DNA of 49,320 bases, from IMG/VR virus record IMGVR_UViG_3300008050_000019; one strand, 5' to 3'. The notes under the pieces were generated by a model. It searched no databases, was not told the DNA's origin, and was given only the letters and a program-made list of their open reading frames with translations. Position 1 is the first letter of the stretch. Each line of letters begins with the position of its first letter. A program made the translations under genes and the position numbers. This document shows, one piece after another, positions 7,399 through 42,312 of the stretch. Origin of the DNA: a virus.

Positions 7399-7402
7399 AA
7401 AA

Positions 7403-7724: not shown

Positions 7725-7793
7725 TGGAGAAGACGGGTAACGCTCCCGCTCATTCCGGTGTGCAAAACCAGATGCTATCCTTATAGCTTCCCC
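7725..7793 (-). tRNA. tRNA-Ala-like (anticodon TGC), short D arm, T loop AGCGTTA
   Basis: acceptor GGGGAAG/CTTCTCC, anticodon arm CTGGT-TTTGCAC-ACCGG, T arm GCGGG-AGCGTTA-CCCGT. Confidence 0.5.
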
Positions 7794-7797
7794 AATA

Positions 7798-7871
7798 AGC
7801 AAGTAAGGGGATTCGAACCCCTACATCAAGAGTGGAAATCTTGCATGCTATCCATTAAACATCATACTCGC
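7798..7871 (-). tRNA. tRNA-Gly (anticodon TCC)
   Basis: acceptor GCGAGTA/TACTTGC, D arm ATGT/GCAT, anticodon arm CAAGA-TTTCCAC-TCTTG, T arm AGGGG-TTCGAAT-CCCCT, U73. Confidence 0.8.
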
Positions 7872-7968
7872 ATACTCGATTTTGTTTTAACCTCATCATG
7901 TTAAATAATTATATAACATTTTTTTTCATTTAACACTTAATTTAAAACAAAATTGAAATTCTTATTCT

Positions 7969-8154
7969 TTAATCAGCAAACTTGTGAATGTTCCCACCCA
8001 CCTTCGTAACCATATTCTGAATGAACTCAGCACGCCCCAGAGCCCGCCAAGCAATTTTTAGTTCATCATCAATACGCTGGGTTGCATCCTTGATGGTTTC
8101 CTTTAACTTTCTAAAAGACTCTTCCATCTCTTGGTCAGTTTGATCATTACTCAT
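7969..8154 (-). CDS. hypothetical small protein (61 aa)
   Basis: six-frame ORF between tRNA genes. Confidence 0.35.
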   Translation of the reverse strand: MSNDQTDQEMEESFRKLKETIKDATQRIDDELKIAWRALGRAEFIQNMVTKVGGNIHKFAD

Positions 8155-8201
8155 AATTTATTTTATCACCTATAATATCCAATGACATATTTTATTTTTA
8201 A

Positions 8202-8288
8202 CGGAAGGCAGAAGGATTGAACTCCATCCACTTTTAAGAACCCACTGATTAGCAAACAGCGACCAGAACCAATCTGGTATTACCTTCC
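8202..8288 (-). tRNA. tRNA-Ser (anticodon GCT), class II
   Basis: acceptor GGAAGGT/GCCTTCC, D arm CCAG-ATTGGTT-CTGG, anticodon loop TTGCTAA, long variable arm. Confidence 0.65.
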
Positions 8289-8293
8289 AAAAG

Positions 8294-8407
8294 TTACGTT
8301 ACCAGGAGTCGAACCTGGCTTGTCAACCAGACACCAGATGAAAACATCTTGAATGGATTCGAACCACTATTACTCGCGCGCAGAGTATATACCGACTTAC
8401 TAACGTA
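8294..8407 (-). tRNA. irregular or nested tRNA-like locus (two T-arm signatures inside one perfect 7-bp acceptor pairing)
   Basis: TACGTTA (8401..8407) pairs perfectly with TAACGTA next to T arm CCAGG-TTCGACT-CCTGG (8302..8318); a second T arm AGTGG-TTCGAAT-CCATT lies between. Confidence 0.3.
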
Positions 8408-8413
8408 ACCAGA

Positions 8414-8486
8414 GGTACTCGAAGGGGATTGAACCCTCATCGTTCGGACCACAGCCGAAAGCTCTAACCATTGAGCTACGAGCACC
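8414..8486 (-). tRNA. tRNA-His (anticodon GTG) with genome-encoded G-1
   Basis: acceptor GTGCTCG/CGAGTAC preceded by G, D arm GCTC/GAGC, anticodon arm TTCGG-CTGTGGT-CCGAA, T arm GAGGG-TTCAATC-CCCTT. Confidence 0.8.
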
Positions 8487-8491
8487 ATAAA

Positions 8492-8563
8492 AGCCTGCGA
8501 GAGGAATTCAACCCCCATTTCTTGATTACAAAACAAGAGTAATAAGCATTATACTACACAGGC
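8492..8563 (-). tRNA. tRNA-Thr (anticodon TGT)
   Basis: acceptor GCCTGTG/CGCAGGC, anticodon loop TTTGTAA, T loop TTGAATT (G56). Confidence 0.6.
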
Positions 8564-11196: not shown

Positions 11197-12078
11197 ATGT
11201 TTAATCGTAAGAACACTCAGAGAAGAAATATAGCATTGATAATGTGTTTGTTCACATTCAGTATTGCATGCAGTAATGTACCAAACTGCGCTAGCATTAA
11301 TATTGCCCCACAAATCGCCGCAGTTCATGACACAAAAAATCTCCCCTTCAATTCTTTTGTCACTGTCAGAAGTAAGACTTTTGAGCGGACATGCACACCA
11401 TCGTTGGCGTTAACAAGCACAGCAGCAGATGTATGCCCGATAAATATTAGAATAGCTTCTGCATCTGGTGTCGTGATTTACAAATCAATACATGATACTG
11501 GCGTTGCATACGTCCTAACAGCAAAGCATATGTGTAATACCAAGCAAGAGATTAAAGGAGACGTAATAAACCATCAATTTGTAATTAAAGATTTCAACTA
11601 TGATTCGTATGAAGCGCTATCATTTGTAAAGTCTGATGCATCGGATTCTTGTATATTGATATTTGCGCACTCGCCCGATTGGATGCAGCCAGTTGAAATC
11701 ACAGAAACTGAACCATCACTTGGTGAGCGTGTATTTAATTTAGCAGCGCCAGAAAGTATGTCTGCGAAACAAACGATGATGGTCTTTGAAGGGTTCTACT
11801 CAGGTATATATGAAGACTACCATATATTTACTCTGCCGGCGTCACAAGGGTCATCTGGTTCACCGATTTTCAATAAAGAAAATCAACTTGTTGGAATGAT
11901 TTTTGCCGTTCCAACAAGTTTAAAAGACGAAAGACTGGGCGACAGTTCAACAAGAGTTACTAAACAAACTATGGAAAATTTAGCATATGCTGTAGGCATC
12001 GATGATATCAAAGCGCTTGTTACCGTACTAGTAGACGTCGATGCTAATATAGACATCGGCAGCATAGAAAAGAATTAA
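11197..12078 (+). CDS. secreted trypsin-like (S1) serine protease, predicted lipoprotein
   Basis: His motif VLTAKHM, Ser motif GSSGSPIF, N-terminal signal ending FSIAC. Confidence 0.75.
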   Translation: MFNRKNTQRRNIALIMCLFTFSIACSNVPNCASINIAPQIAAVHDTKNLPFNSFVTVRSKTFERTCTPSLALTSTAADVCPINIRIASASGVVIYKSIHDTGVAYVLTAKHMCNTKQEIKGDVINHQFVIKDFNYDSYEALSFVKSDASDSCILIFAHSPDWMQPVEITETEPSLGERVFNLAAPESMSAKQTMMVFEGFYSGIYEDYHIFTLPASQGSSGSPIFNKENQLVGMIFAVPTSLKDERLGDSSTRVTKQTMENLAYAVGIDDIKALVTVLVDVDANIDIGSIEKN

Positions 12079-12629
12079 CGTCTACCCAATACCCTCTTTT
12101 GATATTTCTTCATCTTCCGAAGCAGAATATCACGCTTCACCCTCGAAAGTCTATCAAAAAATAGCTTGCCATCCAAATGATCAATTTCATGTTGTAAGCA
12201 GCATGAAAGCAGGCCAAAAGCTTCAACCTCAATATTTTCGCCATTCTCATTTAAGCCCTGAACTTTAATATACGTTGAACGCTCAACCTTACCTGATTGT
12301 CCAGGGACCGACATACAACGCTCAGTCCATATAGATGAGCCTCGGGATTCAACAAGCTTCGGGTTTACGATTGCCAAGCGTCCATGGCTCTTGACGTTGC
12401 TGGTGTCTTCACCATCAGCATCAAGAGGCTCAACATCAACGACAATGACACGCTCAGTCCTTCCAACTTGTGTCGCAGCGAGGCCAATTGAGCCGTGTTG
12501 ATCAATAGTATGAAACATATCTTCGATCAGTTTTCGTGTACTGTCATTAACAACCCCTACTGCCTGTGACGGTACGCGAAGTAATTTATTAGGAGCTTTA
12601 ATAACATGAAGCAATGTAGGATTATTCAT
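12075..12629 (-). CDS. def: peptide deformylase
   Basis: GLAATQVG, CMSVPG and HEIDHLDG motifs; convergent 4-nt overlap with protease gene. Confidence 0.85.
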   Translation of the reverse strand: MNNPTLLHVIKAPNKLLRVPSQAVGVVNDSTRKLIEDMFHTIDQHGSIGLAATQVGRTERVIVVDVEPLDADGEDTSNVKSHGRLAIVNPKLVESRGSSIWTERCMSVPGQSGKVERSTYIKVQGLNENGENIEVEAFGLLSCCLQHEIDHLDGKLFFDRLSRVKRDILLRKMKKYQKRVLGRR

Positions 12630-23148: not shown

Positions 23149-23322
23149 CATGATCACTCAGCTAAAAACTTTTTTCATAAATCCCCTTGTGCTGGCTTTG
23201 CTGGTCATCTTTCCGGCTAGCCTGTACGGGGGTAAGGGAGTTTATTTCTTGCTTAGCCTTCTGTAGCCCAGCATTCCCTCTCTAATAATGTTGTAATATT
23301 TTTGTATCTTTCGGGGTATGGC

Positions 23323-23333
23323 TGTATTACAAT
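23323..23333 (+). promoter_or_regulatory. promoter core TGTATTACAAT of the conserved intergenic module
   Basis: module TCTCTTTCTAATAATGTTGTAATATTCTTGTATC...GTATTACAATATTTTTAGGAATTGG occurs before at least 9 genes. Confidence 0.5.
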
Positions 23334-23357
23334 ATTCTTGAGGATGGAAACAACAAC

Positions 23358-23813
23358 ATGATTTATGGAACTGATGATTGCGCAACCCCTCCCGAAACGC
23401 TGACCGGCCGGATTCAAGTCCAGGTCGAGTTCCGCAATGGCAAATGGCTGATCTCCATCGCTGATGAGGACTGTATTAAAAAGCAGTATGAGTCTGACCA
23501 CATGCCGAAACTTACTGATCTCAGACCAACAAGGCCTCCCTCGAAGTCCAGTGCAGTGCTTGAATCGACGAAGACTCCCTCGGATCTTGAAGGGATGAGG
23601 GAATTCGTCATTGAATTCCAGCCGCCGGTTGGAAACATCACACATCTCAAATGCGTCGAGGGAGATGCTGCAGGCTACGGGTGGCACGTCAAGATTGATG
23701 AAGAATGGATTAACGGATACATAGTCGACCGAACCCACCTTAAAGAAGTCTGGGACGTCGCCGGAGCATTCTTCGAAAAGATGGGTGTCTACAACACTCC
23801 CGCTTTAGACTGA
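23358..23813 (+). CDS. hypothetical protein (151 aa)
   Basis: module promoter plus GAGGATGG SD before ATG. Confidence 0.55.
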   Translation: MIYGTDDCATPPETLTGRIQVQVEFRNGKWLISIADEDCIKKQYESDHMPKLTDLRPTRPPSKSSAVLESTKTPSDLEGMREFVIEFQPPVGNITHLKCVEGDAAGYGWHVKIDEEWINGYIVDRTHLKEVWDVAGAFFEKMGVYNTPALD

Positions 23814-23814
23814 C

Positions 23815-23862
23815 TCCCCATTCTCCTCGTTCTCCCCACCCTCCTCGTTCTCCCCACCCTCC
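23815..23862 (+). repeat. tandem 21-nt repeat (2.3 copies) CCTCCTCGTTCTCCCCACCCT
   Basis: direct tandem copies immediately after stop of 23358..23813. Confidence 0.6.
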
Positions 23863-23942
23863 TCATTCTCTTCATGATATAATATCGTAATTTTTCTGTA
23901 TTCTCTGTGATATGATCGTATTATAATATTTTTAGGAAAAAA

Positions 23943-24284
23943 ATGGAAACCGAATTTGAATACCCTGACTGGGAAAAAATTAGGGCTAAACACCCAAACA
24001 TGATCATCGGATCAACTTTTTATCATGGCTGTGGTGAATTTATCGCTTCCATCAACGGTCAGCGCTTTTGGAAGGGAGGGGTAGAAGAGGGCGACGGCAA
24101 CACATTGGTTGAAAAAGCGATATCAACGTACGATATGGTTCAGCGGAGAATGGAAGCTGCTGGAGTCACACATTGCCTCGTTGATGAAGAAGATCCCAGC
24201 ATGGAACTTCGCCCCATCCAAAAATTCTTCGATGAAGATCGAGAGCGCGCCGCAGATGTCTATTACGACATCTGCGACTACTGA
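23943..24284 (+). CDS. hypothetical protein (113 aa)
   Basis: module promoter then ATG. Confidence 0.55.
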   Translation: METEFEYPDWEKIRAKHPNMIIGSTFYHGCGEFIASINGQRFWKGGVEEGDGNTLVEKAISTYDMVQRRMEAAGVTHCLVDEEDPSMELRPIQKFFDEDRERAADVYYDICDY

Positions 24285-24356
24285 TTTCTCTTTCTAATAA
24301 TGTTGTAATACTCTTGTGTCCTCAGGGATATGATTGTATTACAATATTTTTAGGAA

Positions 24357-24371
24357 TTGGGAATTTCCCAA
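24357..24371 (+). promoter_or_regulatory. operator-like palindrome TTGGGAATTTCCCAA at or just after predicted transcription start
   Basis: perfect 7-bp arms; related palindromes in the same module position at 26491, 27895, 28255, 40510. Confidence 0.5.
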
Positions 24372-24393
24372 CATCCAAACAAGGAGCAAAATT

Positions 24394-25122
24394 ATGGGCG
24401 CAGGATCTAGAGGTCGTCAAGCGGGCGACGCAGACGAGTTGGATGAATCAATCACAACGGCATACGCTGATGGTGATGGGACGATGCAGTCAGTTCTTGA
24501 AGCGCTAAGCGTTTTCGACATTCACCATAATCTCTCAATCCTCCGTGGTTATCTTGATGTCGTCCCCCTGACCGGCATGTCCATTGCGGAGAGTAGAGAG
24601 ATCGAAGAGCTTGTGGATGACCTGATGGATAGCCTCAAGTGCTTTCTCGAAACTGGAGAATACTATCCAGGCGCTCGTGCAAACCGGGCCGACCAGTTGC
24701 GCGAAGAAGCTGATTTTCAAGCAGAAAAACTTTGGGACGAGACCATCGCGCAAGTTGAGGTTCTTGCTGAGGGTGAAATAGAGCTTGAACAGCCAAAACC
24801 AACAACCATCTTCGTTCTCACATACGACGTTGTAGGCGAGGACGAGCTTCTAGGCTTCTTCAGCACAAGGGCTCTGGCTTGGAAGTTCGCCGAGGATTGT
24901 GCACAAGAAGATTGGGAATCGGAGCAGGAATATGGCACTGACGAAACTTTCGAAGAGTTTATGATCGATTGGAGACGTGCAGTCGTTCATGAGTGTGCTT
25001 TGGATCAATGCTTCAAGCCGTATAAATCCGGAGATCCGGACCGCAACCTCAGCCTCCGCCTTCGTGATCAAGACTGGGGCAACGCCAAAGAGACCACATA
25101 CGAGAGCTTTAAAAACAGCTAG
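24394..25122 (+). CDS. hypothetical acidic protein (242 aa)
   Basis: AAGGAG SD 8 nt before ATG; ORF-track N-extension is translated promoter. Confidence 0.6.
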   Translation: MGAGSRGRQAGDADELDESITTAYADGDGTMQSVLEALSVFDIHHNLSILRGYLDVVPLTGMSIAESREIEELVDDLMDSLKCFLETGEYYPGARANRADQLREEADFQAEKLWDETIAQVEVLAEGEIELEQPKPTTIFVLTYDVVGEDELLGFFSTRALAWKFAEDCAQEDWESEQEYGTDETFEEFMIDWRRAVVHECALDQCFKPYKSGDPDRNLSLRLRDQDWGNAKETTYESFKNS

Positions 25123-25195
25123 CCTGCCATTCTCTTTCTAATAATGTTGTAATATTCTTGTATCTTCCGAGAATATTCGTGATATAATATTATTA

Positions 25196-25618
25196 ATGAA
25201 AAAAACTGGGTATGCCACATTTACATATAGATGGTTCAGTCAAGCTGAACCATCAGTAACACAAGAGCTTCGGGACAAAATCAATGCAGCCTTTGATGAA
25301 GGCGGCTATGGTGCGGGAATGAAGTACTGGCATGATAACCGTCCCTCAGATGAAGTCCTAGATGCAGTCTGGGCATCCCTTACCGATGTCAGGGCCGAGA
25401 TTGAAATGGCTGCACAGGAAGTCGGCTTTAGTCCAAAGAGTCAAAAGGCTTTTGATCGTATCATGAAAGAAGGACCCCATCGAGTCCCGCTCAAAAGTAA
25501 CAGGCTCAAAAAGATGGCAGATAGGCTTTCACCCGTTGCTTCGCACATCGCAAATTCACTATGTGATTATGAAGCACAGGTTTTTTGTGGAGCTTTGCGA
25601 GGTCATGACGAAGGATAA
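25196..25618 (+). CDS. hypothetical protein (140 aa), leaderless
   Basis: GTGATATAATATTATTA-ATG: -10 ends 6 nt before ATG. Confidence 0.55.
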   Translation: MKKTGYATFTYRWFSQAEPSVTQELRDKINAAFDEGGYGAGMKYWHDNRPSDEVLDAVWASLTDVRAEIEMAAQEVGFSPKSQKAFDRIMKEGPHRVPLKSNRLKKMADRLSPVASHIANSLCDYEAQVFCGALRGHDEG

Positions 25619-25712
25619 ACTCCTCGTTAAATTCTCTTTCTAATAATGTTGTAATATTCTTGTATCTTCCGAGAATATTCGTGATATAATATTATTAGGA
25701 GTTAAACACTAC

Positions 25713-26123
25713 ATGGCAAGCTTACCCAACCAAGACTACCACCGACGTAATGCTGCACCGATCCCAGCAGAAATCTGGGCCACCGATAAGTGGCAAGAGC
25801 AGAATGCTGCCAAATTCAAATCACGTAGAGATGCAGTGGAACTTTACGCTGCCACGTTCAAGCTTGTTCTGAATGTTGATCCCATGGAGGAGTGGTACGA
25901 AGACATCGGCCTGCATGACTACAGTGCATCAGAATTCGGCACCTCTCATGAACCCCCAGTAATCTACTTGGCGATTCGTGATGTTGTTGAAGAAGAGTTG
26001 GAGGAGCTTCCTGAGTATGAAGTTGAGGGCATCTTCATCACCGACTCGACCGGGACCCAGATGAGAACGCTCCAGTTTGTCAAGAATTGCTGCAGCTTCG
26101 GAATTGCTGCACATAATAAGTAA
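25713..26123 (+). CDS. hypothetical protein (136 aa)
   Basis: AGGAG SD then ATG. Confidence 0.6.
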   Translation: MASLPNQDYHRRNAAPIPAEIWATDKWQEQNAAKFKSRRDAVELYAATFKLVLNVDPMEEWYEDIGLHDYSASEFGTSHEPPVIYLAIRDVVEEELEELPEYEVEGIFITDSTGTQMRTLQFVKNCCSFGIAAHNK

Positions 26124-26172
26124 ACAATTTAGTATTCCCTGTATCCTAATCGTGTTACCATGTTCTTAGGAA

Positions 26173-26418
26173 ATGACACAAACTCATATAATTTTATCTT
26201 ATGAAGATCTGAGTCTTCGTTTATGTGATCAGGGCACCCGTGATGACCTGATCAAGCTTTTGAATGAAGGGTGGAAACCTGAGCCTGGGCCGTTCTCCCT
26301 TTGGGACATCACCGATGACGGCCACATCTATAAGGTAAATACGTACCTAGGCAAAATCGTGATTGCCCCATTACCTAAAGGTGGTAACTCCCTTGATGTC
26401 ACGTCGTTAATTGACTAA
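26173..26418 (+). CDS. hypothetical protein (81 aa)
   Basis: six-frame ORF. Confidence 0.5.
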   Translation: MTQTHIILSYEDLSLRLCDQGTRDDLIKLLNEGWKPEPGPFSLWDITDDGHIYKVNTYLGKIVIAPLPKGGNSLDVTSLID

Positions 26419-26526
26419 ATTCTCTTTCTAATAATGTTGTAATACTTTTGTATCTTTCGGGACATGATCGTATTATAATATTTTTAGGAATTGGGAATTT
26501 CCCAACATCCCTTTACAGGAGTTAAT

Positions 26527-26931
26527 ATGGAAGCACCCTTCGACTGGGGCACGATCAGTGTCAACTTTCCTTCAATTGCCAACCTGCTTCTTGAGCAAGT
26601 CGAGGAGTTTGGTGATGAAGGTGAGGAAGAGTTCACCCCAATCTACCTGGACGACGACGAGTATCTTGGTGAACCCCCGGGTGATGCTGAAGCTTATCTT
26701 GAGGGCGACACCCTTATGATTGTGCACCCCACTGAGCTCGATGCTTACCTCATTTGCATCAACCCGTCCGGAATGGTGTACCACCCAGGACCAACCTTCT
26801 ACACATATCGGAACGGCAAGCTTCACTATGAATCTCAAATGGACAATAATTCCACCATCGACCTCTTCGAGGGTGATGAAGCCTTCACGGGCGACCAAGG
26901 CCGGTCGTATATGGCTGCTTCAACAACATGA
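26527..26931 (+). CDS. hypothetical acidic protein (134 aa)
   Basis: CAGGAG SD then ATG; module operator TTGGGAATTTCCCAA at 26491..26505. Confidence 0.55.
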   Translation: MEAPFDWGTISVNFPSIANLLLEQVEEFGDEGEEEFTPIYLDDDEYLGEPPGDAEAYLEGDTLMIVHPTELDAYLICINPSGMVYHPGPTFYTYRNGKLHYESQMDNNSTIDLFEGDEAFTGDQGRSYMAASTT

Positions 26932-27177
26932 AGTGCAGTGGCGAGTTTAGGGAATCGACTGGGTGGATTTATACCAAATGGGACGCTGAGAACACTGCAC
27001 CAAACACTTGCGCTCGGAAGCCCTATGGCCAGAGGAGAAAAAGAGGGAAATAATCCCCCTAATTTCCTTCTCTAATAATGTTGTAATATTCTTGTGTCCT
27101 CAGGGATATGATTGTATTACAATATTCTTAGGAATTGGGAATCACTGAGGTCACCCTCCATTGCAAAGCAGGTAAGT

Positions 27178-27486
27178 ATGTCAGAATGTATCAGAAGCCC
27201 CCACAAAAGTGGGAACCTCTCTATCAAGGCTGTCGATGAAGGGGGCGAAACCTTCGGGAACATGCTCCTTAGGTTCATATGCTATGAGCTTTCGACATGG
27301 CACCTCATGCCGAAGGACTATGAGGCTTTGAGAGTGTTCTTAGAACAAACACATGATGATTGCGCATGGATTGACTATAAGGGTACTCTGGATGCTCCTG
27401 GACCCGTGAGCATCACCATTTATGTGTGGAATAGCTGGCTACATGATGGACTCCCGAAGACGCCAAGGTCACTTATCCTCCGGTAA
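27178..27486 (+). CDS. hypothetical protein (102 aa)
   Basis: module promoter; GCAGGTAAG then ATG. Confidence 0.45.
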   Translation: MSECIRSPHKSGNLSIKAVDEGGETFGNMLLRFICYELSTWHLMPKDYEALRVFLEQTHDDCAWIDYKGTLDAPGPVSITIYVWNSWLHDGLPKTPRSLILR

Positions 27487-27545
27487 GCCAGGAAAAAAGA
27501 GGAAAATAATCCTCAATCGTATCCTATCTGTGTTATAATATTCCT

Positions 27546-27830
27546 ATGGAAAATGCGGATATTGAATCCAAACTCATCTCTGATGAACTCCTTCGCCTCT
27601 CCACCCTCGATACCTTCCGAACCGTCGCATTTCGGGTCAAGGGAATTGACCCGGGTGAATATGGGGGTGGGCACGAACTTCAAGCAATCTGTTTTGAGTT
27701 TCTGGAAGAGTCGAACTCCAAGGACTTCATGGGTCTGACGGACGCCGATTTGGACGAAGGGCCAGGAATCTGGTACAGACTGAATGATGATCTCACCACC
27801 TTCATGCAAGAATTTAGCTTCAAAAGCTGA
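27546..27830 (+). CDS. hypothetical acidic protein (94 aa), leaderless
   Basis: TGTGTTATAATATTCCT-ATG. Confidence 0.55.
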   Translation: MENADIESKLISDELLRLSTLDTFRTVAFRVKGIDPGEYGGGHELQAICFEFLEESNSKDFMGLTDADLDEGPGIWYRLNDDLTTFMQEFSFKS

Positions 27831-27937
27831 TTCCCTTCTCTAATAATGCTGTAATATTCTTGTATCTTCCGGGATATGATTGTATTACAATATTTTTAGG
27901 AATTGGAATTAATCCAATATCCAAACAAGGAGTTTCT

Positions 27938-28189
27938 ATGACTAGCAAAGTGTATCTCGTTATTCGTGAAGATGAGTTCGGTGACTCAGTCAAGATTGTC
28001 CCAGAAACCTATCAAATCGTAGGGTTTACTCACTCAAAAGAGTTGGCGGAAGCCGCAGCAAACAAGCTCAATCACACTGGGCGCGATGGATGTGGTCATG
28101 ACATCGACTTCAGTGATCCCTATTGGGGAGATGAGTTCTGTGATGGTGATATAACTGTCTGGACAGTCGAGGAAGTTGACGCACTCTAA
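27938..28189 (+). CDS. hypothetical protein (83 aa)
   Basis: CAAGGAG SD then ATG. Confidence 0.55.
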   Translation: MTSKVYLVIREDEFGDSVKIVPETYQIVGFTHSKELAEAAANKLNHTGRDGCGHDIDFSDPYWGDEFCDGDITVWTVEEVDAL

Positions 28190-28287
28190 TCTCATTTTCT
28201 AAGAATATTGTAATATTTTTGTATCCTTCGGGGTATGATCGTATTACAATATTTTTAGGAATTGGAAATTCCGAATAAGGAGCAACT

Positions 28288-28527: not shown

Positions 28528-28530
28528 TTA

Positions 28531-28589
28531 GTCGAAACGGGTTTAACCCGTCACTTGGGAGTTCCTTCCCAGGTCTGATGAGACAGGAG
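28531..28589 (+). ncRNA. hammerhead ribozyme, type II (HH1); predicted cleavage after C28552
   Basis: GUC-GAAA-[ACGGG-uuuaa-CCCGU]-C|A-[CUUGGGA-guuccu-UCCCAGG]-U-CUGAUGA-GAC-AGGAG; 3' AGGA can pair loop-I UCCU. Confidence 0.8.
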
Positions 28590-28594
28590 CATAG

Positions 28595-28903
28595 ATGAAA
28601 TTATCCGAACTTAAGAAGCAAATCGTTACGCTGGAAGAACGATTCCCAGGGGAGAATATCGAGGTTCGTGTGGGGACCAACGCAAAAATTGATCCCTTCC
28701 TGTCCCAAGTCGTGACCACAGGTCTGCGATTTCACAATTCCAGCCCGCCATTCTACGGGCATGAAATCCAGAGCCCACCAATGGAAGCCAGGGTGGTTTT
28801 GCACATCACTGTCACACAGAAGCCAGTCATTGTCGATCCCATTGCTCACGCTGATGACTTTGATATCCGTGATAGTCAGTGTCGGAACCCTTCCCAGGAT
28901 TAA
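28595..28903 (+). CDS. hypothetical protein (102 aa) downstream of HH1
   Basis: GGAG SD 6 nt after ribozyme core, then ATG. Confidence 0.55.
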   Translation: MKLSELKKQIVTLEERFPGENIEVRVGTNAKIDPFLSQVVTTGLRFHNSSPPFYGHEIQSPPMEARVVLHITVTQKPVIVDPIAHADDFDIRDSQCRNPSQD

Positions 28904-30433: not shown

Positions 30434-30640
30434 CAGTTTATAATATCACATCTGATGAACTTTTGCAACATATTTTACTCACACTCGCCGGCGCAAAAAG
30501 TTATCTTTTTTTGAAAAAAAGGGTTATAAGAGCACATTATCATGAACGGTAAAAAATCATTAAAGTTGCAAAAGCTGTATTAAATGAGACAGGAATGTCA
30601 TATAATATTTTAAGGGACAGGAAAATTATAATGAGCAAGC

Positions 30641-30985
30641 TTAATCATCACGCCAATCTTCGATATCGTATATCCCGTACGTATCTTTCAAGGGTTGTTC
30701 TTTACCTGTCATTAGCAGGTAAACACGATACAGTTCTATTGGTAGTTCCTCTCCATGTAAATAAAAGATAGCGTTTTTTCTTAGTGAGTTGCTATGAGCA
30801 AAAACAACCGCTGGACCATCTTCTCTGTGCGTGATACAAGAAGCATCACGATAATGCACCAAAATAAGCTCGCCATAATCGTCTTTTACTTTTCTTAGAA
30901 ACCCACCATTAGGTAAGGAAATTCTGCTAATCATATTGCACGCTTCATATTTGATAATATCACATCTGGTGAACTCTTGCAACAT
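30641..30985 (-). CDS. HREDGPA / MORN-like repeat protein
   Basis: THREDGPAVVF; tail LYRVYLLMTGKEQPLKDTY; leaderless TGTGATATTATCAAAT-ATG. Confidence 0.55.
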   Translation of the reverse strand: MLQEFTRCDIIKYEACNMISRISLPNGGFLRKVKDDYGELILVHYRDASCITHREDGPAVVFAHSNSLRKNAIFYLHGEELPIELYRVYLLMTGKEQPLKDTYGIYDIEDWRDD

Positions 30986-31089
30986 ATTTTACTCGCATCC
31001 ACCCCGGGGCAAGTATACCGCTAACTGTTCTTATTTTGTGTCAAATGTTCCTAATTCGTGGTATAATTTATATAGAAATGAGGAACATA

Positions 31090-31586
31090 TGAAGTTTAGT
31101 TCTATTAAGTGCTTTCTAGGGTTTCATGATTGGTTTCGCATGTATCGATCAGCAGAACAAAACAAGAGGTACGATGGTGTACCCTTGCAGGATGCGTATG
31201 CGTACATTACCGTCTGGGAGGCATGGAAGTTAGGGACCACCATTGGCGGGAGGCATATTACACAGACTTCTACAGCTCGACAAAAAAACTTTATTGCCGA
31301 CATCCATCGTGACAAAACATGCATACACTGCAAGAAGGTTAATCTGAGGTTTGAAAAGTTGCTAGTTTCGTGTGAAGCGAAGCAAGCAGTAAGAGATCGT
31401 GCTAGAGTCGCCGAGTTGGGGCGCCAAAACTGCATTCCCATTGACACTTATGTAGCCAGGATCTGTGAAGCACGTGAAGCGTATGGTAAGCCTGTAACAC
31501 CTCTAGTGACAGGTAAGGCCCAGGGGAAGCTTTCAATAGCAGAACTTGGGCCAGGAAACATCTCACTTTCAGAAAAGAGTAAATAG
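31090..31586 (+). CDS. CFxGxHDW / CxxC / GKLSIAE family paralog 1
   Basis: MKFSSIKCFLGFHDWF ... DKTCIHCKKVNLRFEKLL ... GKLSIAELGPGNISL; AGGAACAT then ATG. Confidence 0.55.
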
Positions 31587-31587
31587 T

Positions 31588-32064
31588 ATGTCATTAAAAA
31601 GGCTACTGTGTTTCATTGGTAGACATGATTACCATAACGTTCCTAAAACATTTGAACATGCCACTAAGTTCAAAGCAATTGAACTTTACTGGATAGTGCG
31701 ACAGCTTACACCAGCGCAATTTTCTGCGTGTAACATTTCCCTAGAGAGATCACTTAACCAGAAGCACCTGCAAGTCAATAAAGCAAAAATCTTATGCACG
31801 ATACATGATAGTGTGTGCGTAAGGTGTAATAATGTCGACTTAGCATTTACGAAGATTCTTTCTGGAGCGGAGAAGGCAATCAGTGAGGCATGCACCAAAA
31901 ACCAACGAGATGCTGCCAGAAACAATGAGTATGAAGAAATGGTCAAGAAGGCTAGAATGATATACTTTGATGAAAGGCCAGCCCACACTCTTATAACAGA
32001 TGGGAAGCTTTCAATAGCAGAACCACATAATGGTAGGGTTTCTATACCTAGGAGTCACAAATAA
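31588..32064 (+). CDS. CFxGxHDW / CxxC / GKLSIAE family paralog 2
   Basis: MSLKRLLCFIGRHDY ... DSVCVRCNNVDLAFTKIL ... GKLSIAEPHNGRVSIP. Confidence 0.55.
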   Translation: MSLKRLLCFIGRHDYHNVPKTFEHATKFKAIELYWIVRQLTPAQFSACNISLERSLNQKHLQVNKAKILCTIHDSVCVRCNNVDLAFTKILSGAEKAISEACTKNQRDAARNNEYEEMVKKARMIYFDERPAHTLITDGKLSIAEPHNGRVSIPRSHK

Positions 32065-32065
32065 T

Positions 32066-32587
32066 ATGGGTTGGAAAAAGTTGCAATGTTTCATTGGGTG
32101 GCATGATTGGTGCAACGCTCTGCCAACGGTCGAGCAAATAAAGAGGTGGGATTCCTTAGATATTGCTCATATCAAGCAAGCAGCCAGCTGGGCCGTCCGT
32201 AGTCATTCTAAGAAGGAAGTCAAGTATTTTTATCGTGATAAAGCATGTAGGCGATGCGAGAAGATTGATTTGGCACATGAAAAGCTGCTGGAAGAATCAG
32301 AAAAGATAGAGTATAAAAGCACCCAAATTGAGCATAAGTCCAAAGATATAGAACATATTCTGATAAGTAAGATTACGGGTGCTAGGATGCAACGCCATAA
32401 AGAGCTTGTCGCAGGGACAGAGATAAAACAATCTTCTGGTGGGAAGCTTTCAATCGCAGAAAATGTTGAGGGGAGCGTTTCGCTGCCAAGTGATGAGACT
32501 TTAAAAGCACGACACACAGAAGATGAGCTTGATTTCGAAGTTAGTCAACAAAGAGAAGCAAAAATAGTAGACAATTACGTTTCTTAA
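32066..32587 (+). CDS. CFxGxHDW / CxxC / GKLSIAE family paralog 3
   Basis: MGWKKLQCFIGWHDW ... DKACRRCEKIDLAHEKLL ... GKLSIAENVEGSVSLP. Confidence 0.55.
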   Translation: MGWKKLQCFIGWHDWCNALPTVEQIKRWDSLDIAHIKQAASWAVRSHSKKEVKYFYRDKACRRCEKIDLAHEKLLEESEKIEYKSTQIEHKSKDIEHILISKITGARMQRHKELVAGTEIKQSSGGKLSIAENVEGSVSLPSDETLKARHTEDELDFEVSQQREAKIVDNYVS

Positions 32588-32908
32588 AGTTAGGAGGGGA
32601 TGGGTAAGAGCATAAAAGCAGCATAATTGTGAGGCTCGAAAAAAGGGCCGAGCCAAGTCCCACCAGCCCCCGTCGCCAGCCACTACTATCCCACGCCTCC
32701 CCACATAAAAAATAACACCTTCCCACAATCATGAGGTCATCATCTAGCCCTATGATTCGAGGGATATATGTACACTTGTCGTTCTGTGCTTGATTAAATC
32801 CGAGTGATTCTGTGCATTTCTGTGCTGTTCCAGCATACCATATACAAAGCATCAAAAAACATGTGGGGATATGTGTGCTAAAAAGCACCAGATGTGGTAT
32901 AATAAAGG

Positions 32909-33463
32909 ATGAAAAATATAATCTTAGCTGGCCTATTTACTCTAACTGTGGGGTGTGGACCTGCAATCGAAAAAGAAGACTTCATTGGTGCATGGACTTA
33001 TTATAGCGGAATTTCGACAGACATATGTTCTAATGGTCAAACACAAGTACGTTCCGCTGCAGGCGCAACAATCGCATATGAACAGAAGGGTGACCTCATA
33101 AGGGCGTATGGCATAAATGACACCAATGTAGGGGAACTTATATTTGGTGATGATGGGTTCTATTACAAGTTAAACAAGAATAAGCTTGTGGCAGAAGGAC
33201 CCCAGTCTCAATGTTGGAGAATTTACAATGGCAATTACCCCTATGAATGTCTAACCCAAGAAGAAGCCACGTTCAGCATGGAGTATTCAAATGTTAAACG
33301 AGAAGGTGCTGAAGATGTTGAGGAGCTGGTCATAACCATGGCAGGTAGTGGTCACCATGAAGGATTGCTTAGTAATGATACACGTGATGTTGGTTTGTCT
33401 TGTGACTATACAATAGAGGGTAAGTTGTTGTTCAACCCTATTGCAACCAACTTGTTAGACTAG
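32909..33463 (+). CDS. predicted secreted lipoprotein (184 aa)
   Basis: MKNIILAGLFTLTVGC signal and lipobox. Confidence 0.55.
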   Translation: MKNIILAGLFTLTVGCGPAIEKEDFIGAWTYYSGISTDICSNGQTQVRSAAGATIAYEQKGDLIRAYGINDTNVGELIFGDDGFYYKLNKNKLVAEGPQSQCWRIYNGNYPYECLTQEEATFSMEYSNVKREGAEDVEELVITMAGSGHHEGLLSNDTRDVGLSCDYTIEGKLLFNPIATNLLD

Positions 33464-33600
33464 TTCTATTCCTTTAGTCTATCCTAGATCTTTGCTTTAT
33501 TTTGGTTTGCTGCCCTGGATGAGGGCTTGATATGGCAGCCACATGGCGGAGGAGTGGGGCAACACAATCATCATCAAGTATATGTCCGTCCTTCCTTTCT

Positions 33601-33660
33601 AATGTCGAAACACCTTCGGGTGTCATATTGGGTGACCTCCAACGTCTGATGAGATAGGTC
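33601..33660 (+). ncRNA. hammerhead ribozyme, type II (HH2); predicted cleavage after C33624
   Basis: GUC-GAAA-[ACACC-uucg-GGUGU]-C|A-stemI(UUGGG..GACCU..CCAA)-CUGAUGA-GAU-AGGUC; AGGUC pairs loop-I GACCU. Confidence 0.8.
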
Positions 33661-33671
33661 AAGGAGAAGTT

Positions 33672-34247
33672 ATGAGCGCATCTAGAAGAGACACTCAAGT
33701 AAGCAGATTAAAGAAAATCCTCCCGGGAGTACTTCAGACGAAGGGTATAATGTGCTTCATCCATGCTTATGATGAAGGCGGAATGAACCGAGCCTGGGAA
33801 AATGTTGATACAGAAGACAAGCAGGCATTCATGGCTTTCTGTGAAAGCATCATGGATGAAGAGCTAGAGTACTTGGCCGCCTTTCTTGGTCATGGTGATG
33901 AAAGCCTAAGTAGCCTATTCTCTGATTTCCTTGAAAAAATGGAGGTTCTATTTCAAATAGAATCAGACAAGGAGTATACAGAACAGCAAAACGCCCACAA
34001 CGAGTGGGTGAAAACTACCAGGACCTCGAACCAGGGGAAAGTCATTACTCGAGGTGATCGCGTCTTATCGGAATCTGGAATGACTGGTGTGGTCGTCGGG
34101 GTGGTTTCTGAGACGGCACAACACTTTGGGTCCATTAAAGTATGGAATGAAGACACCAAGGGGTGTTGTGACCAATGCGGAGAAAATCCCACTCGCACAT
34201 TTTCATTTAGCAATTGGGAATCAGAATTAATAATTCTCGATAAGTAA
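33672..34247 (+). CDS. hypothetical protein (191 aa) downstream of HH2
   Basis: AAGGAG SD overlaps ribozyme 3' tail; ATG 33672. Confidence 0.55.
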   Translation: MSASRRDTQVSRLKKILPGVLQTKGIMCFIHAYDEGGMNRAWENVDTEDKQAFMAFCESIMDEELEYLAAFLGHGDESLSSLFSDFLEKMEVLFQIESDKEYTEQQNAHNEWVKTTRTSNQGKVITRGDRVLSESGMTGVVVGVVSETAQHFGSIKVWNEDTKGCCDQCGENPTRTFSFSNWESELIILDK

Positions 34248-34329
34248 CATCCTTGTATCCTTCGTGTCCTTCTTGTATTAAAATATTTCAGGATTCGGGA
34301 ATCACCCAATCTTTTGAGATAGGATTCAT

Positions 34330-34392
34330 ATGTACGAATTGTTGAGTGGCATCTTTATTTTTTCAATCACCATCATGTCAGTGTTTGCCTGA
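34330..34392 (+). CDS. candidate micro-ORF encoding 20-aa hydrophobic peptide MYELLSGIFIFSITIMSVFA
   Basis: ATG..TGA behind a module-like promoter CTTGTATTAAAATATTTCAGGATTCGGGAATCACC. Confidence 0.2.
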   Translation: MYELLSGIFIFSITIMSVFA

Positions 34393-34483
34393 TGTTGGAA
34401 GCTGTCTTAAACTGAGTGGAACGCCGTATTGACGCTATTGGTGGCATGAGTTGCAGAGCATGTCCAATTTAAAATCGGCTGCA

Positions 34484-34540
34484 TTCGAAACGCCCTAAGG
34501 GCGTCATGTTGGGTGACCTCCAACGTCTGATGAGATAGGT
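34484..34540 (+). ncRNA. hammerhead ribozyme, type II (HH3); predicted cleavage after C34505
   Basis: GAAA-[ACGCCC-uaa-GGGCGU]-C|A then sequence identical to HH2 from stem I onward; stem III differs by compensatory changes. Confidence 0.75.
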
Positions 34541-34552
34541 CAAGGAGAAGTT

Positions 34553-34678
34553 ATGAATATCACGAAACCCAAACCCACATCTGCAGTTATTACGCACACC
34601 TGCGGGCCAGCCGAGAAGACGTATAAAGTTACAAGCACCGTCAAGCTCAAGAAAGTGAGCACAAAGGAGCTAAAATAA
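34553..34678 (+). CDS. small ORF (~41 aa) downstream of HH3
   Basis: AAGGAG SD then ATG; MNITKPKPTSAVITHTCGPAEKTYKVTSTVKLKKVSTKELK. Confidence 0.35.
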   Translation: MNITKPKPTSAVITHTCGPAEKTYKVTSTVKLKKVSTKELK

Positions 34679-34680: not shown

Positions 34681-34929
34681 ATGATGTACTTTGTAGGAAC
34701 TGCACAAGAGGAAAATAAGAACTCACTTAAGTATTTTTTGACCCAATTGTGTTCCTCTGTCGAAACAGAGGACGGACCGGAAGCTGCAGCTAAGCTATAT
34801 GCAGCCGATATGGATAGCGTTGACAGGGAAGATCTCGTTATTTATGTTATAAGTCAACGAACCACTTGTACTGTACGCAATGAAACTGTTTCGACGGTTA
34901 CGGATATAGAAACAAAAGATGAAAAATAA
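34681..34929 (+). CDS. hypothetical protein (82 aa)
   Basis: six-frame ORF directly after previous stop. Confidence 0.45.
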   Translation: MMYFVGTAQEENKNSLKYFLTQLCSSVETEDGPEAAAKLYAADMDSVDREDLVIYVISQRTTCTVRNETVSTVTDIETKDEK

Positions 34930-35006
34930 GTATCATCTGTAGGATGCCAGTGTTACAATATTCTTGGAAATAGGAAATAAAGCCTATCTCCAATGGAGTA
35001 TATAGC

Positions 35007-40313: not shown

Positions 40314-40403
40314 ATGAAAGGCGGAATTAAAATGAAGAAAACCTGACGATCTTGACTTTAATAAATAAATGCAAAACTGGGAATTAAGAAACGGAAAGAA
40401 AAA

Positions 40404-40460
40404 GCCGAAACGCTGAGAAGCGTCTGCTAAGACTAACCCCTTGGCACTGATGAGGCAGGT
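40404..40460 (+). ncRNA. hammerhead ribozyme, type II (HH4); predicted cleavage after C40424
   Basis: GCC-GAAA-[CGCU-gaga-AGCG]-UC|U-[GCUAAG..UUGGC]-A-CUGAUGA-GGC-AGGU. Confidence 0.7.
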
Positions 40461-40569
40461 AAATAAATTAATTACCTTGTTTCAATTGAATTAAGAATGT
40501 AATAATATATTCTTACAAACGGGGATTGGAAATTCCCCCTCAACATTCAAAAGAAAGCAATAACCAATT

Positions 40570-41214
40570 ATGCCTAAAGCAATCAACTTCGTCTCCGGCC
40601 AGTCTTACAACGTCTTCGAGGACAAGGGTTCCGCCATCAATGGTAAGGGTCAGCTCCAAATTTCCGAAAACAAGAATAAGGGGAGCATCACCCCAAGCAT
40701 GGACCTCACGTACGTCGGTCGTGGGGCAAAGGACACTCCCAACGCCGGCAAGGATATCTTCGACTTGCCTGCTGGGGTGGTACTTCAAGGCCAAAGCCAA
40801 ATCGTTGGCCACAAGAACCACTTCGATTCCCAGACCGAATACAATCTCGCCAAGAACGGAAGTGCCCGAAAGGGTACTTTGGCGGAGCAGATTGCCGACG
40901 TCAGGAGCCGGCTGGCTTCGAATGCCACTTTCCGCCTCAAGCTTGAAGGGCAAATTGCTGCTCTTGAGGTTAAGCAGTCCGAACAAGAAGTAGCTGAGGA
41001 GCTTGCGGCACAGGTGAATGCTGCGGCTGCTGCTGATTTGGCTGCTGCAGAAGCTGAAGGGCCTAGCGCCCCTGAAGAGGTCTCTGAGGCTGACGCTGAG
41101 GAAGCGGAAGCATTGGCTGCTGCAGAAGCGGAGAGTGATTCCGAGGTCGACCTTGAGGCTTTGATGGGGAGCCTTACGGAATCTACGCCAGTCGTCGACT
41201 ACGACGAAGCCTAA
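40570..41214 (+). CDS. GC3-rich paralog family member 3 (214 aa, acidic Ala/Glu-rich C-terminus)
   Basis: GQSYNVFEDKGS...PSMDLTYVGRGAKDTP...VGHKNHFD matches 19144 and 21873 genes. Confidence 0.7.
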   Translation: MPKAINFVSGQSYNVFEDKGSAINGKGQLQISENKNKGSITPSMDLTYVGRGAKDTPNAGKDIFDLPAGVVLQGQSQIVGHKNHFDSQTEYNLAKNGSARKGTLAEQIADVRSRLASNATFRLKLEGQIAALEVKQSEQEVAEELAAQVNAAAAADLAAAEAEGPSAPEEVSEADAEEAEALAAAEAESDSEVDLEALMGSLTESTPVVDYDEA

Positions 41215-41228
41215 GCCGAAAGGGCTAA

Positions 41229-41287
41229 GCCGAAACCCCCTCGGGGGTTATCCTAGGGTTACCTCCTAGGGTCTGATGAGGCAGGTT
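41229..41287 (+). ncRNA. hammerhead ribozyme, type II (HH5); predicted cleavage after GUU at 41249
   Basis: GCC-GAAA-[CCCCC-ucg-GGGGG]-UU|A-[UCCUAGGG-uuaccu-CCUAGGGU]-CUGAUGA-GGC-AGGU. Confidence 0.7.
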
Positions 41288-41309
41288 CCCTCCCTATTCT
41301 TAGGAAAAC

Positions 41310-41546
41310 ATGAAACAAAAAATTACTCGGGCAATGAACAAATCTGATTGGAAGTGCCCATGTCATGGTAAACAAGTTGTTGAAAAGCGGCGGATGAGAG
41401 AGGATAATCAAGGCCGACGTAAATACGCTGGTACATATTTTTCATGCCCCCAGTATTCTGAGTGTGGCTACTACGTCTCAGGGACATTTCAAGTCCCACT
41501 AACTGATGATGCTGGCATCGCCCTTAACCGTCAAAAGAAAGACTAA
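41310..41546 (+). CDS. hypothetical protein with CxxC...C...CxxC motif (78 aa)
   Basis: WKCPCHG ... FSCPQYSECGYY. Confidence 0.5.
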   Translation: MKQKITRAMNKSDWKCPCHGKQVVEKRRMREDNQGRRKYAGTYFSCPQYSECGYYVSGTFQVPLTDDAGIALNRQKKD

Positions 41547-41549
41547 GAT

Positions 41550-41750
41550 ATGAGTAAAATGTACATTGTTGTTGACCAAACTACACCCAAAGATGTGGTG
41601 GCCTTAGCAACGGGTGACCAAATTGAAGCAGAAGAATATGCGGTCAAGTATGACCCAAGCCACTTCAACATGCGAATCATTTGCCTTTCACCAGGTGACA
41701 CCATCGTTCCAGGTGCTAATGAACGCTTCCCGGGTAAAGTAATTTTCTAA
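41550..41750 (+). CDS. hypothetical protein (66 aa)
   Basis: six-frame ORF. Confidence 0.45.
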   Translation: MSKMYIVVDQTTPKDVVALATGDQIEAEEYAVKYDPSHFNMRIICLSPGDTIVPGANERFPGKVIF

Positions 41751-41810
41751 GTCGAAACGGGCTTCGGCCCGTCGTTCTGGAATGACTCCCAGGGCCTGAT
41801 GAGACAAGTC
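41751..41810 (+). ncRNA. hammerhead ribozyme, type II (HH6); predicted cleavage after C41773
   Basis: GUC-GAAA-[CGGGC-uucg-GCCCG]-UC|G-[UUCUGG..CCAGGGC]-CUGAUGA-GAC-AAGUC; AAGUC pairs loop-I GACU. Confidence 0.8.
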
Positions 41811-41836
41811 TTAACCTTAAACAAAACGAGAACTTT

Positions 41837-42016
41837 ATGAAGACTATGGGATTTTTTGGATTTCTTTTTGCGCTGATTTTCCTTGTTGCCGGTGCGGAAC
41901 TTGGCTATAGCGTTTTTAAATCAGCAACTGATCAGTGTGATGTCCGGCTTCCGATCGACGCATATCTACATGGGCAGTGGTTGTGCCCCGAAACCAACAT
42001 CATTGGTGAACGATGA
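41837..42016 (+). CDS. small predicted membrane protein (~58 aa)
   Basis: MKTMGFFGFLFALIFLVAGAELGY... one TM helix; stop overlaps next ATG. Confidence 0.35.
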   Translation: MKTMGFFGFLFALIFLVAGAELGYSVFKSATDQCDVRLPIDAYLHGQWLCPETNIIGER

Positions 42017-42240
42017 AGCAGTCTAATTCAAGCGATTTCATCTTCTGGGCGGCTGCAGCAGCCACCATTGGGTCCGCTTGTTTATCAATCGGGTTTGTGT
42101 TAGGTAACCTTTGGTTAAGCCTAAGCTTCGGCGCAAGTGCATTGAAGGCTTTCACCAAAGGATGTGACAGAACGTACACCATTGAAAAATATGTCAGTGG
42201 TGATTGGTTCTGCGAAGCGAAAACCCCCTACACACGATAA
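42013..42240 (+). CDS. small predicted membrane protein (75 aa)
   Basis: two hydrophobic segments. Confidence 0.45.
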   Translation: MKQSNSSDFIFWAAAAATIGSACLSIGFVLGNLWLSLSFGASALKAFTKGCDRTYTIEKYVSGDWFCEAKTPYTR

Positions 42241-42301
42241 GTCGAAACGGGCTTCGGCCCGTCATTCTGGTCTAACCTCCAGAATCTGATGAGACAGGTT
42301 A
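42241..42301 (+). ncRNA. hammerhead ribozyme, type II (HH7); predicted cleavage after C42263
   Basis: GUC-GAAA-[CGGGC-uucg-GCCCG]-UC|A-[AUUCUGG-ucuaaccu-CCAGAAU]-CUGAUGA-GAC-AGGUUA; AGGUUA pairs loop-I UAACCU. Confidence 0.8.
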
Positions 42302-42312
42302 AAGGAAGCAAG

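Follow-up and report, generated by a model that had tools for sequence, protein, structure and literature searches.

Two type II hammerhead motifs, HH2 and HH3, stand before two unrelated genes of a phage-like genome and carry near-identical 3' halves that run through the ribosome-binding site. We consider it likely that these members of a seven-motif type II array form a natural ribozyme insulator combined with a ribosome-binding site and that they are the product of partial duplication or recombination. The window, meaning the whole stretch of DNA analysed here, comprises 49,320 nucleotides of the IMG/VR virus record IMGVR_UViG_3300008050_000019 and is part of a large phage-like genome (~309 kb, a jumbo-phage-like contig).

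Identification of HH2 and HH3 as type II hammerheads

The two motifs were located in the sequence where the initial annotation had placed them, and their elements were assigned as follows.

33603..33661, + strand: HH2, type II hammerhead motif
33603-33606 and 33653-33656, + strand: HH2 stem II, 3' strand UGUC and 5' strand GAUA
33607-33610 and 33646-33652, + strand: HH2 GAAA and CUGAUGA
33610-33614, 33615-33618 and 33619-33623, + strand: HH2 stem III, ACACC, loop UUCG and GGUGU
33622-33624, + strand: HH2 GUC, with C17 at 33624 and predicted cleavage between 33624 and 33625
33625-33631, 33632-33638 and 33639-33645, + strand: HH2 stem I, AUAUUGG, loop GUGACCU and CCAACGU
33656-33661 and 33633-33638, + strand: HH2 pseudoknot, tail AGGUCA pairing with UGACCU
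34483..34542, + strand: HH3, type II hammerhead motif
34483-34486 and 34534-34537, + strand: HH3 stem II, 3' strand (AU)UC and GA(UA), only 2 bp
34487-34490 and 34527-34533, + strand: HH3 GAAA and CUGAUGA
34490-34495, 34496-34498 and 34499-34504, + strand: HH3 stem III, ACGCCC, loop UAA and GGGCGU
34503-34505, + strand: HH3 GUC, with C17 at 34505 and predicted cleavage between 34505 and 34506
34506-34512, 34513-34519 and 34520-34526, + strand: HH3 stem I, AUGUUGG, loop GUGACCU and CCAACGU
34537-34542 and 34514-34519, + strand: HH3 pseudoknot, tail AGGUCA pairing with UGACCU

Judged from sequence and predicted fold, HH2 and HH3 are genuine type II hammerhead motifs. Both copies read CGAAAC, a hairpin, GUC, a second hairpin and CUGAUGAG, with no core substitutions, and present the order GAAA, stem III, cleavage site, stem I and CUGAUGA. 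In each, the NUH triplet after stem III is GUC and the closing pair is A15.1-U16.1. The Rfam and R2 alignments showed stems I and III closed and stem II open in both motifs, which is the type II permutation. The UGACCU/AGGUCA pseudoknot is perfect in both copies and spans 6 bp (criterion, at least 4 bp), at about -8 kcal/mol as a duplex.

HH3 scored 38.0 bits against Rfam RF02276 (Hammerhead_II; gathering score, 37) and was detected with relaxed filters only, the default search having missed it. HH2 scored 29.0 bits, under the gathering score, surfaced only when a 141-nt stretch was searched and was not picked up in wider Rfam searches. Against R2, a covariance model built from 59 hammerheads of other viral contigs without sequence from the window, both motifs were strong matches; HH2 scored 51.8 bits (E = 3.5e-12) and HH3 61.1 bits (E = 9.4e-15), on the understanding that R2 leans towards the loop and tail sequence of HH2 and HH3, 24 of its loci having been retrieved by a pattern containing it.

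A search of the whole window with R2 and with filters off yielded seven type II hammerheads, all on the + strand; matches with E <= 1 start at 28528, 33601, 34481, 40401, 41226, 41748, and 42238. The five members other than HH2 and HH3 are the following.

28528..28599, + strand: type II hammerhead of the same array (Rfam, 39.6 bits; R2, 59.8 bits)
40401-40471, 41226-41297, 41748-41820 and 42238-42310, + strand: four hammerheads (Rfam, 37.7-40.8 bits; R2, 55.7-73.3 bits)

In the hammerhead at 28528..28599, the pseudoknot tail AGGAG is also the Shine-Dalgarno sequence of an ORF starting at 28595. Each of the four hammerheads in 40401..42310 flanks one or two small ORFs. Degenerate or additional hammerheads, including one at the tail-like string TGAGATAGGATTCA (34313-34326), were sought with filters off, and none was found beyond the seven; no other ribozyme class was detected near the array in Rfam at E <= 5.

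The hammerheads at 41748 and 42238 have an identical 26-nt 5' half and differ in stem I and the pseudoknot. This pair, with a common 5' half and differing 3' parts, is the mirror case to HH2 and HH3. The same 26-mer also occurs in unrelated viral contigs.

Covariation across the hammerhead family

The initial annotation had read the HH2/HH3 pair as a signature of selection on RNA structure rather than sequence. We evaluated base pairing in a covariation alignment of 89 hammerheads, of which 71 are distinct, drawn from the window and 27 IMG/VR loci and fitted to the model. Among the 71 distinct hammerheads, standard pairs filled 93.7% of cells, compared with 62.7% after shuffling and 27-41% when the partners were slid. 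The covariation score was 0.764 versus 0.184 for shuffled and <= 0.108 for slid alignments, with the fitting of the alignment to the model to be kept in mind. Changes on both sides were seen at 14 of 16 pairs, and all three stems covary. The pseudoknot columns were paired in 81.7% of the 71 sequences, with five of the six pairs changed on both sides. These data strongly support selection on structure at the level of the family. The HH2/HH3 pair by itself, with its one compensatory base-pair change, is a weak indication of structural selection.

Minimum-free-energy folding, which had been proposed as a check, predicted stem III in both copies. It was uninformative on stem I, since the preferred fold contains the pseudoknot helix, which is not combinable with stem I in such a prediction.

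HH2 as the weaker copy

HH2 and HH3 differ in predicted stability. HH2 carries a mismatch at the third pair of stem I (A33627×C33643), a position at which non-standard pairs occur in 2 of the 71 distinct sequences. The stem I hairpin was computed at -2.5 kcal/mol in HH2 and -6.9 kcal/mol in HH3, stem III at -5.6 and -8.7 kcal/mol, and the whole hammerhead fold without the pseudoknot at -6.6 and -13.8 kcal/mol, respectively. Stem II is longer in HH2 (3-4 bp) than in HH3. The R2 score of HH2 is the lowest of the seven. Because of its low Rfam score, weak fold, and rare stem I mismatch, HH2 is the weaker copy and may be a slow, decaying or inactive ribozyme. As the two motifs differ in a stem I mismatch, in the length of stem II, and in the stability of stem III, they offer a simple test case for how such features tune cleavage.

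Genomic context and transcription units

The array is located in a region of small ORFan genes. The window also encodes an array of tRNA genes (26 by ARAGORN, 29 by Rfam), a peptide deformylase, a lytic transglycosylase, and many ORFans. Between 23273 and 28270, it contains intergenic repeats of 67-106 nt with 85-100% identity. The features adjoining HH2 and HH3 are listed below.

30597..30609, + strand: promoter-like motif nearest upstream of HH2, from the GTGTTAnAATATT scan
33661..33674, + strand: start region of the 191-aa gene, with Shine-Dalgarno AAGGAG (33661-33666), spacer AAGUU and AUG at 33672
33672..34247, + strand: 191-aa ORFan gene between HH2 and HH3, from the ORF list
34275..34287, + strand: promoter-like extended -10 motif GTATTAAAATATT, a one-mismatch member of GTGTTAnAATATT, repeat family D1
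34330..34392, + strand: 20-aa hydrophobic micro-ORF (MYELLSGIFIFSITIMSVFA), from the ORF list, with AGGA 5 nt before AUG
34553-34678, + strand: 41-aa ORF, with the same start region as the 191-aa gene
34681-34929, + strand: 82-aa ORF, beginning 2 nt past the stop codon of the 41-aa ORF

The promoter-like box and the 20-aa ORF had both been noted between the two hammerheads, and both were found there. The box is a copy of a motif that is abundant in the window: GTGTTAnAATATT occurred 47 times against 8.0 expected, and none of 100 shuffles reached 47. It sits ~215 nt upstream of the HH3 cleavage site, and the predicted micro-ORF falls in the leader that HH3 would remove. No copies of GTGTTAnAATATT were found between 30597 and 34275; on motif positions alone, HH2 therefore probably lies inside a polycistronic transcript in which four genes (30936-33463) are followed by HH2 and then by the 191-aa gene. 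Neither of the two leaders showed unusual structure (z-scores of 0.22, for the HH3 leader with the micro-ORF, and 1.14).

HH3 had been described as driving only an ORF of ~41 aa, which proved incomplete. Since only 2 nt separate the 41-aa stop codon from the 82-aa ORF and no further promoter motif follows HH3 before 34950-34962, HH3 heads a predicted two-ORF unit (41 aa and 82 aa). From this unit, the gene caller run on L004 predicted only an 81-aa form of the second ORF.

In both copies, the last A of the pseudoknot tail is the first base of AAGGAG, 5 nt before AUG, and the sequence of 33661-33674 is the same as that of 34542-34555. In 60 of the 73 distinct hammerheads, the CUGAUGA box has a Shine-Dalgarno sequence and start codon after it, at a median distance of 28.5 nt; for HH2 and HH3, this distance is 19 nt. 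Sharing of the tail and start region was higher within contigs (0.67) than between contigs (0.57; p = 1e-24).

The genes adjoining HH2 and HH3 matched no Pfam or PHROGs family. For the 191-aa ORFan, searches of 5.8 billion clusters and 1.84 billion representatives returned only self or 99%-identical matches, and neither this protein nor the 176-aa one had homologues beyond the same phage. Diverged relatives of the phage were sought by megablast of 17 kb against phages, by exact 40-mer and protein patterns in IMG/VR, by a 29-mer in metagenome contigs and by the homologue searches with the two proteins; together these recovered only same-phage copies of at least 99.9% identity. For the ~309-kb contig, the phage, plasmid-free, and IMG/VR collections searched contained no close relative.

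Extent and origin of the repeat

The repeat finder aligned 33613-33675 with 34494-34556 at 94% identity. Within this, a 54-nt block that begins at GUC and ends with the A following the start codon (33622-33675 and 34503-34556) differs at one position, A33627 versus G34508, and the 47-nt string quoted in the initial annotation is the same in both copies. Its statement that the copies are nearly identical from stem I through the ribosome-binding site was borne out by this alignment. The flanks are unrelated both upstream of CGAAAC and downstream of ATGA, where identity is at chance level (27%).

Misassembly had been named as an outcome that would undo the duplication. A 308,593-bp contig from an independent assembly (ena:ERZ27249009:k141_306648) contains HH2 as well as HH3, matching at 99.98% identity and without a single difference within the two ribozymes, and two short contigs cover HH2, which together exclude a misassembly.

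The shared block does not reflect a general start-site consensus. The 14-mer AAGGAGAAGTTATG of the start region has exact matches in the window at the HH2 and HH3 sites only, which argues for shared ancestry. Moreover, the other hammerhead copies show free variation in stem I, loop I, and the tail, so the near-identity of HH2 and HH3 in these elements is not due to constraint. We infer that the 3' halves and translation start regions of HH2 and HH3 are of recent common ancestry.

Stem III was said to be entirely different in the two copies yet a perfect hairpin in each. The hairpin is indeed perfect in both; the stems, however, have four of five base pairs in common (A-U, C-G, and two more C-G). 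The differences are one compensatory pair (A-U in HH2, G-C in HH3), an extra C-G pair in HH3, and the loop. These amount to about five change events in the 15 stem III columns versus one in the 54 nt that follow (Fisher p = 0.0014, an approximate value because the stem III events were treated as independent and paired changes are not). Given this clustering and the unrelated flanks, the data fit better with a partial duplication, gene conversion or recombination that placed a shared 3' half behind different 5' halves, with a boundary near the cleavage site, than with gradual compensatory drift.

A related reading takes the ~54-nt direct repeats as a recombination scar marking the gain or loss of a cassette with the 191-aa ORFan, with HH2 perhaps decaying and of little function as a ribozyme. 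The repeats do bracket a single ORFan gene amid repeated intergenic modules and the 47 promoter motifs, HH2 has its stem I mismatch and lowest score, and shuffling mediated by PeSLs, together with mini-circles, is documented in T4-type phages (PMC2839356). We nevertheless consider this account rather unlikely, since no variant without the 881-nt segment was found and the gene is present in all assemblies, the GC content and composition of the 191-aa gene segment are not distinct and bear no sign of recent acquisition, and the HH2 core is fully intact. The comparison for repeat-bounded indels covered relatives of at least 99.9% identity, all of which have the same arrangement. This account is compatible with the preferred explanation and does not exclude it. 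If the cassette were lost, the 881-bp deletion junction would consist of the HH2 5' half followed by ATGAATATCACG.

The explanation originally offered, namely one duplication of the whole module, after which stem III diverged by compensatory changes, with selection maintaining the hairpin and no change elsewhere, is possible and less likely than partial copying or recombination; on balance we judge it unlikely. It draws on the CGAAAC, the first two stem III pairs and the two further C-G pairs common to both copies, on the clean A-U to G-C swap at one pair, and on the strong covariation of stem III across the family. However, CGAAAC and the A-U and C-G pairs are near-invariant in all hammerheads and are therefore uninformative on recent descent; moreover, the excess of changes in stem III over the adjoining sequence, the equal variability of stem I, loop I, and the tail across the family, and the unrelated sequence upstream of CGAAAC all stand against it. 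The duplication was accordingly upheld for the 3' half, and its compensatory replacement of stem III was overstated.

Proposed role in transcript processing

Under the favoured model of an insulator joined to a ribosome-binding site, each module would fold into the stem III hairpin, followed by the GUC site and the stem I hairpin, and the UGACCU of loop I would pair with the AGGUCA of the tail. This pseudoknot would hold stems I and II parallel, stem II itself being short and open; the pseudoknot is needed for fast cleavage in hammerheads of this kind (PMC3088659). Cleavage after C33624 and C34505 would part the downstream gene from the upstream transcript, so that HH2 would cut off a four-gene transcript and HH3 a promoter-proximal leader of ~215 nt. 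The upstream RNA would be left with a 3' stem III hairpin and a cyclic phosphate, and the downstream mRNA would carry a 5'-OH and open with the stem I hairpin and a constant leader of 47 nt, whose AAGGAG takes its first base from the end of the pseudoknot and stands 5 nt before AUG. Most likely, the modules would serve to sever the transcript shortly before the ribosome-binding site, so that two genes receive the same 47-nt leader. The 3' half, which spans cleavage site through start codon, would have been copied before two unrelated genes and joined to different 5' halves. It is from the observed motifs, structure, family covariation, and repeat with its limits that we infer this recombination history, cleavage in vivo, and an effect on mRNA stability or translation.

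Two further possibilities were evaluated. The 881-nt RNA between the cleavage sites (33625-34505) might be excised and its ends joined, either through reversal of the hammerhead reaction or through an RtcB-type ligase of the host, to give a circular mRNA encoding the 191-aa protein, as two cuts would leave 5'-OH and 2',3'-cyclic phosphate ends that could rebuild a hammerhead because the 3' halves are identical, and as this possibility has been raised for phage arrays (PMC3088659); we regard it as very improbable, given that circular or spliced products were not detected in comparable arrays (PMC3088659), that stem II, needed to hold the ends, has only 2-4 bp, and that nothing in the sequence requires circularisation. 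Equally improbable is a block on translation by the upstream flank of the ribozyme until cleavage: the minimum-free-energy fold of HH2 pairs UUCCU (33592-33596) with the Shine-Dalgarno region, but HH3 is without such a complement, duplex energies between each flank and its own start region were no better than those of mismatched controls among the 71 hammerheads (p = 0.17), and HH2 and HH3 lie at about the 60th percentile of the controls. Masking of the Shine-Dalgarno sequence by the upstream flank was rejected on these energies.

Comparison with known systems and implications

Perreault et al. (2011; PMC3088659) described the type II topology, a pseudoknot joining loop I to the tail, and phage arrays that flank single genes. 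HH2 and HH3 share with the phage and prophage hammerheads of RF02276 the core, the topology, the GUC site, the 6-bp pseudoknot between loop I and the 3' tail, and an open stem II of 2-4 bp, as well as the arrangement in arrays that flank single genes or short blocks whose function is not known (PMC3088659). They differ from these in that the 3' half is near-identical through the ribosome-binding site and start codon in two copies, that HH2 falls under the Rfam threshold, and that the host genome is a ~309-kb jumbo-phage-like contig.

The modules also resemble the engineered RiboJ insulators, hammerhead parts that are used "to normalize the 5'-UTR" (PMC7536230). In both cases, a hammerhead lies directly upstream of a ribosome-binding site, provides a uniform short leader and is reused before different genes. 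In the circuit model of that study, faster decay of uncleaved mRNA is an assumption taken from cited literature. RiboJ is a satellite-RNA hammerhead with an added 23-nt hairpin, whereas the motifs here are of type II and their pseudoknot tail abuts the Shine-Dalgarno sequence. A RiboJ-like role is the proposed natural function of the HH2 and HH3 modules.

The PeSL cassettes of T4-type phages (PMC2839356, PMC4122927) provide a second parallel, in that short repeated regulatory modules bracket ORFans in variable regions and direct repeats could mediate gain or loss of the enclosed gene. PeSLs combine a promoter with a terminator stem-loop, whereas the HH2 and HH3 modules combine a ribozyme with a ribosome-binding site, and neither a promoter motif nor a terminator-like site was found in the repeated block, which accordingly lacks the composite make-up of a PeSL. 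Separate promoter-containing repeats in the window resemble PeSLs more closely.

A wider reading, which we hold to be quite doubtful, is that modules of a hammerhead and a ribosome-binding site serve large phages as portable expression cassettes that standardise leaders and, being direct repeats, also act as recombination sites moving ORFans into and out of the variable region. If true, such modules would be a ribozyme-based counterpart of PeSLs, with breakpoints tending to lie at the cleavage site and thereby shuffling the 5' and 3' halves of the ribozyme independently.

The kind of element and its arrangement were already known (Perreault et al., 2011), and general knowledge of hammerheads is unchanged by these data. 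In HH2 and HH3, a hammerhead is joined directly to a ribosome-binding site and the combination recurs before two unrelated genes, which adds a clean natural case of such a fusion. The pair lends support to the view that hammerhead arrays in phages divide long transcripts into messages for single genes, each with a defined leader.

Hammerhead motifs in the window

Two further hammerheads had an identical 26-nt 5' half (TAAGTCGAAACGGGCTTCGGCCCGTC, at 41748-41773 and 42238-42263) and differed in stem I and the pseudoknot. This pair is the mirror image of HH2 and HH3, the two type II hammerheads with near-identical 3' halves and different 5' halves. The same 26-mer was also present in three otherwise unrelated IMG/VR contigs (L001, L002, and L003). 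The hammerhead at 41226-41297 was the only one in the window with the cleavage site GUU instead of GUC; GUU is permitted under the NUH rule. In the hammerhead at 28528-28599, AGGAG was both the pseudoknot tail and the Shine-Dalgarno sequence for the ORF that begins at 28595; folding into the active ribozyme should therefore compete with ribosome binding.

The string TGAGATAGGATTCA (34313-34326), immediately 5' of the 20-aa hydrophobic micro-ORF upstream of HH3, was similar to the hammerhead tail TGAGATAGGTCA, and the GGGAATCACCC hairpin loop lying 5' of it could pair with it. Since the model search gave no match at 34313-34326, the tail-like string is probably a chance resemblance or a decayed remnant.

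Among the contigs used for comparison, L005 and L006 (ena:ERZ27249139:k141_241262) both began at window position 32676. L006, a short contig, ended exactly at position 34505, the C17 of HH3 (the base 5' of the predicted cleavage site). This end point coincided with the start of the block common to HH2 and HH3 and looks like an assembly break at a repeat.

Promoter-like motif, gene content, and tRNA array

The promoter-like motif GTGTTAnAATATT occurred in 47 copies in the window versus approximately 8 expected, and lay within intergenic repeats (67-106 nt, 85-100% identity) located between small ORFan genes. Some copies were preceded on the 5' side by a short stem-loop, such as GTATCCTTCGGGGTAT at 28221. 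These repeats were similar to PeSLs, the promoter-terminator cassettes found in T4-type phages. A tandem run of three paralogous genes, encoding 216, 172, and 185 aa, contained repeated segments, one of which, GGGAAGCTTTCAATAGCAGAAC, was found three times; none of the three genes had a family match. The only recognizable genes among those scanned against Pfam were the four listed below with the other features.

Features of the window
23273-28270 and scattered (e.g., 34950, 37820, 38257, and 39519), copies of GTGTTAnAATATT
30936-32587, + strand, three tandem paralogous genes
12075-12629, - strand, peptide deformylase (E 2e-44)
3012-3575, - strand, SLT lytic transglycosylase
2168-3043, - strand, phosphoribosyltransferase domain
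11197-12078, + strand, trypsin-like peptidase
400-8563, - strand, dense tRNA array

The tRNA array comprised 26 genes according to ARAGORN and 29 matches according to Rfam. An Rfam "tRNA-Sec" match at 401-488 (50.9 bits) was rejected as a selenocysteine tRNA because ARAGORN called it tRNA-Ser with the anticodon UGA.

Hammerheads in other contigs

The IMG/VR viral contigs L014, L027, L024, and L002 had type II hammerhead arrays of their own, with 6-9 copies in approximately 2-6 kb. The sequence of the tail and start region was common within each array and array-specific (e.g., CAAGGAGGA in L027 and GGGGAAATA in L002). The sequence CUGAUGAGAUAGGUCAAGGAG, in which the pseudoknot tail runs directly into a Shine-Dalgarno sequence, recurred in the metagenome contigs L033, L034, and L035, in hammerheads whose stems I and III were quite different. 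This recurrence indicates that the fusion of tail and ribosome-binding site is a recurrent design, not one peculiar to the phage of the window.
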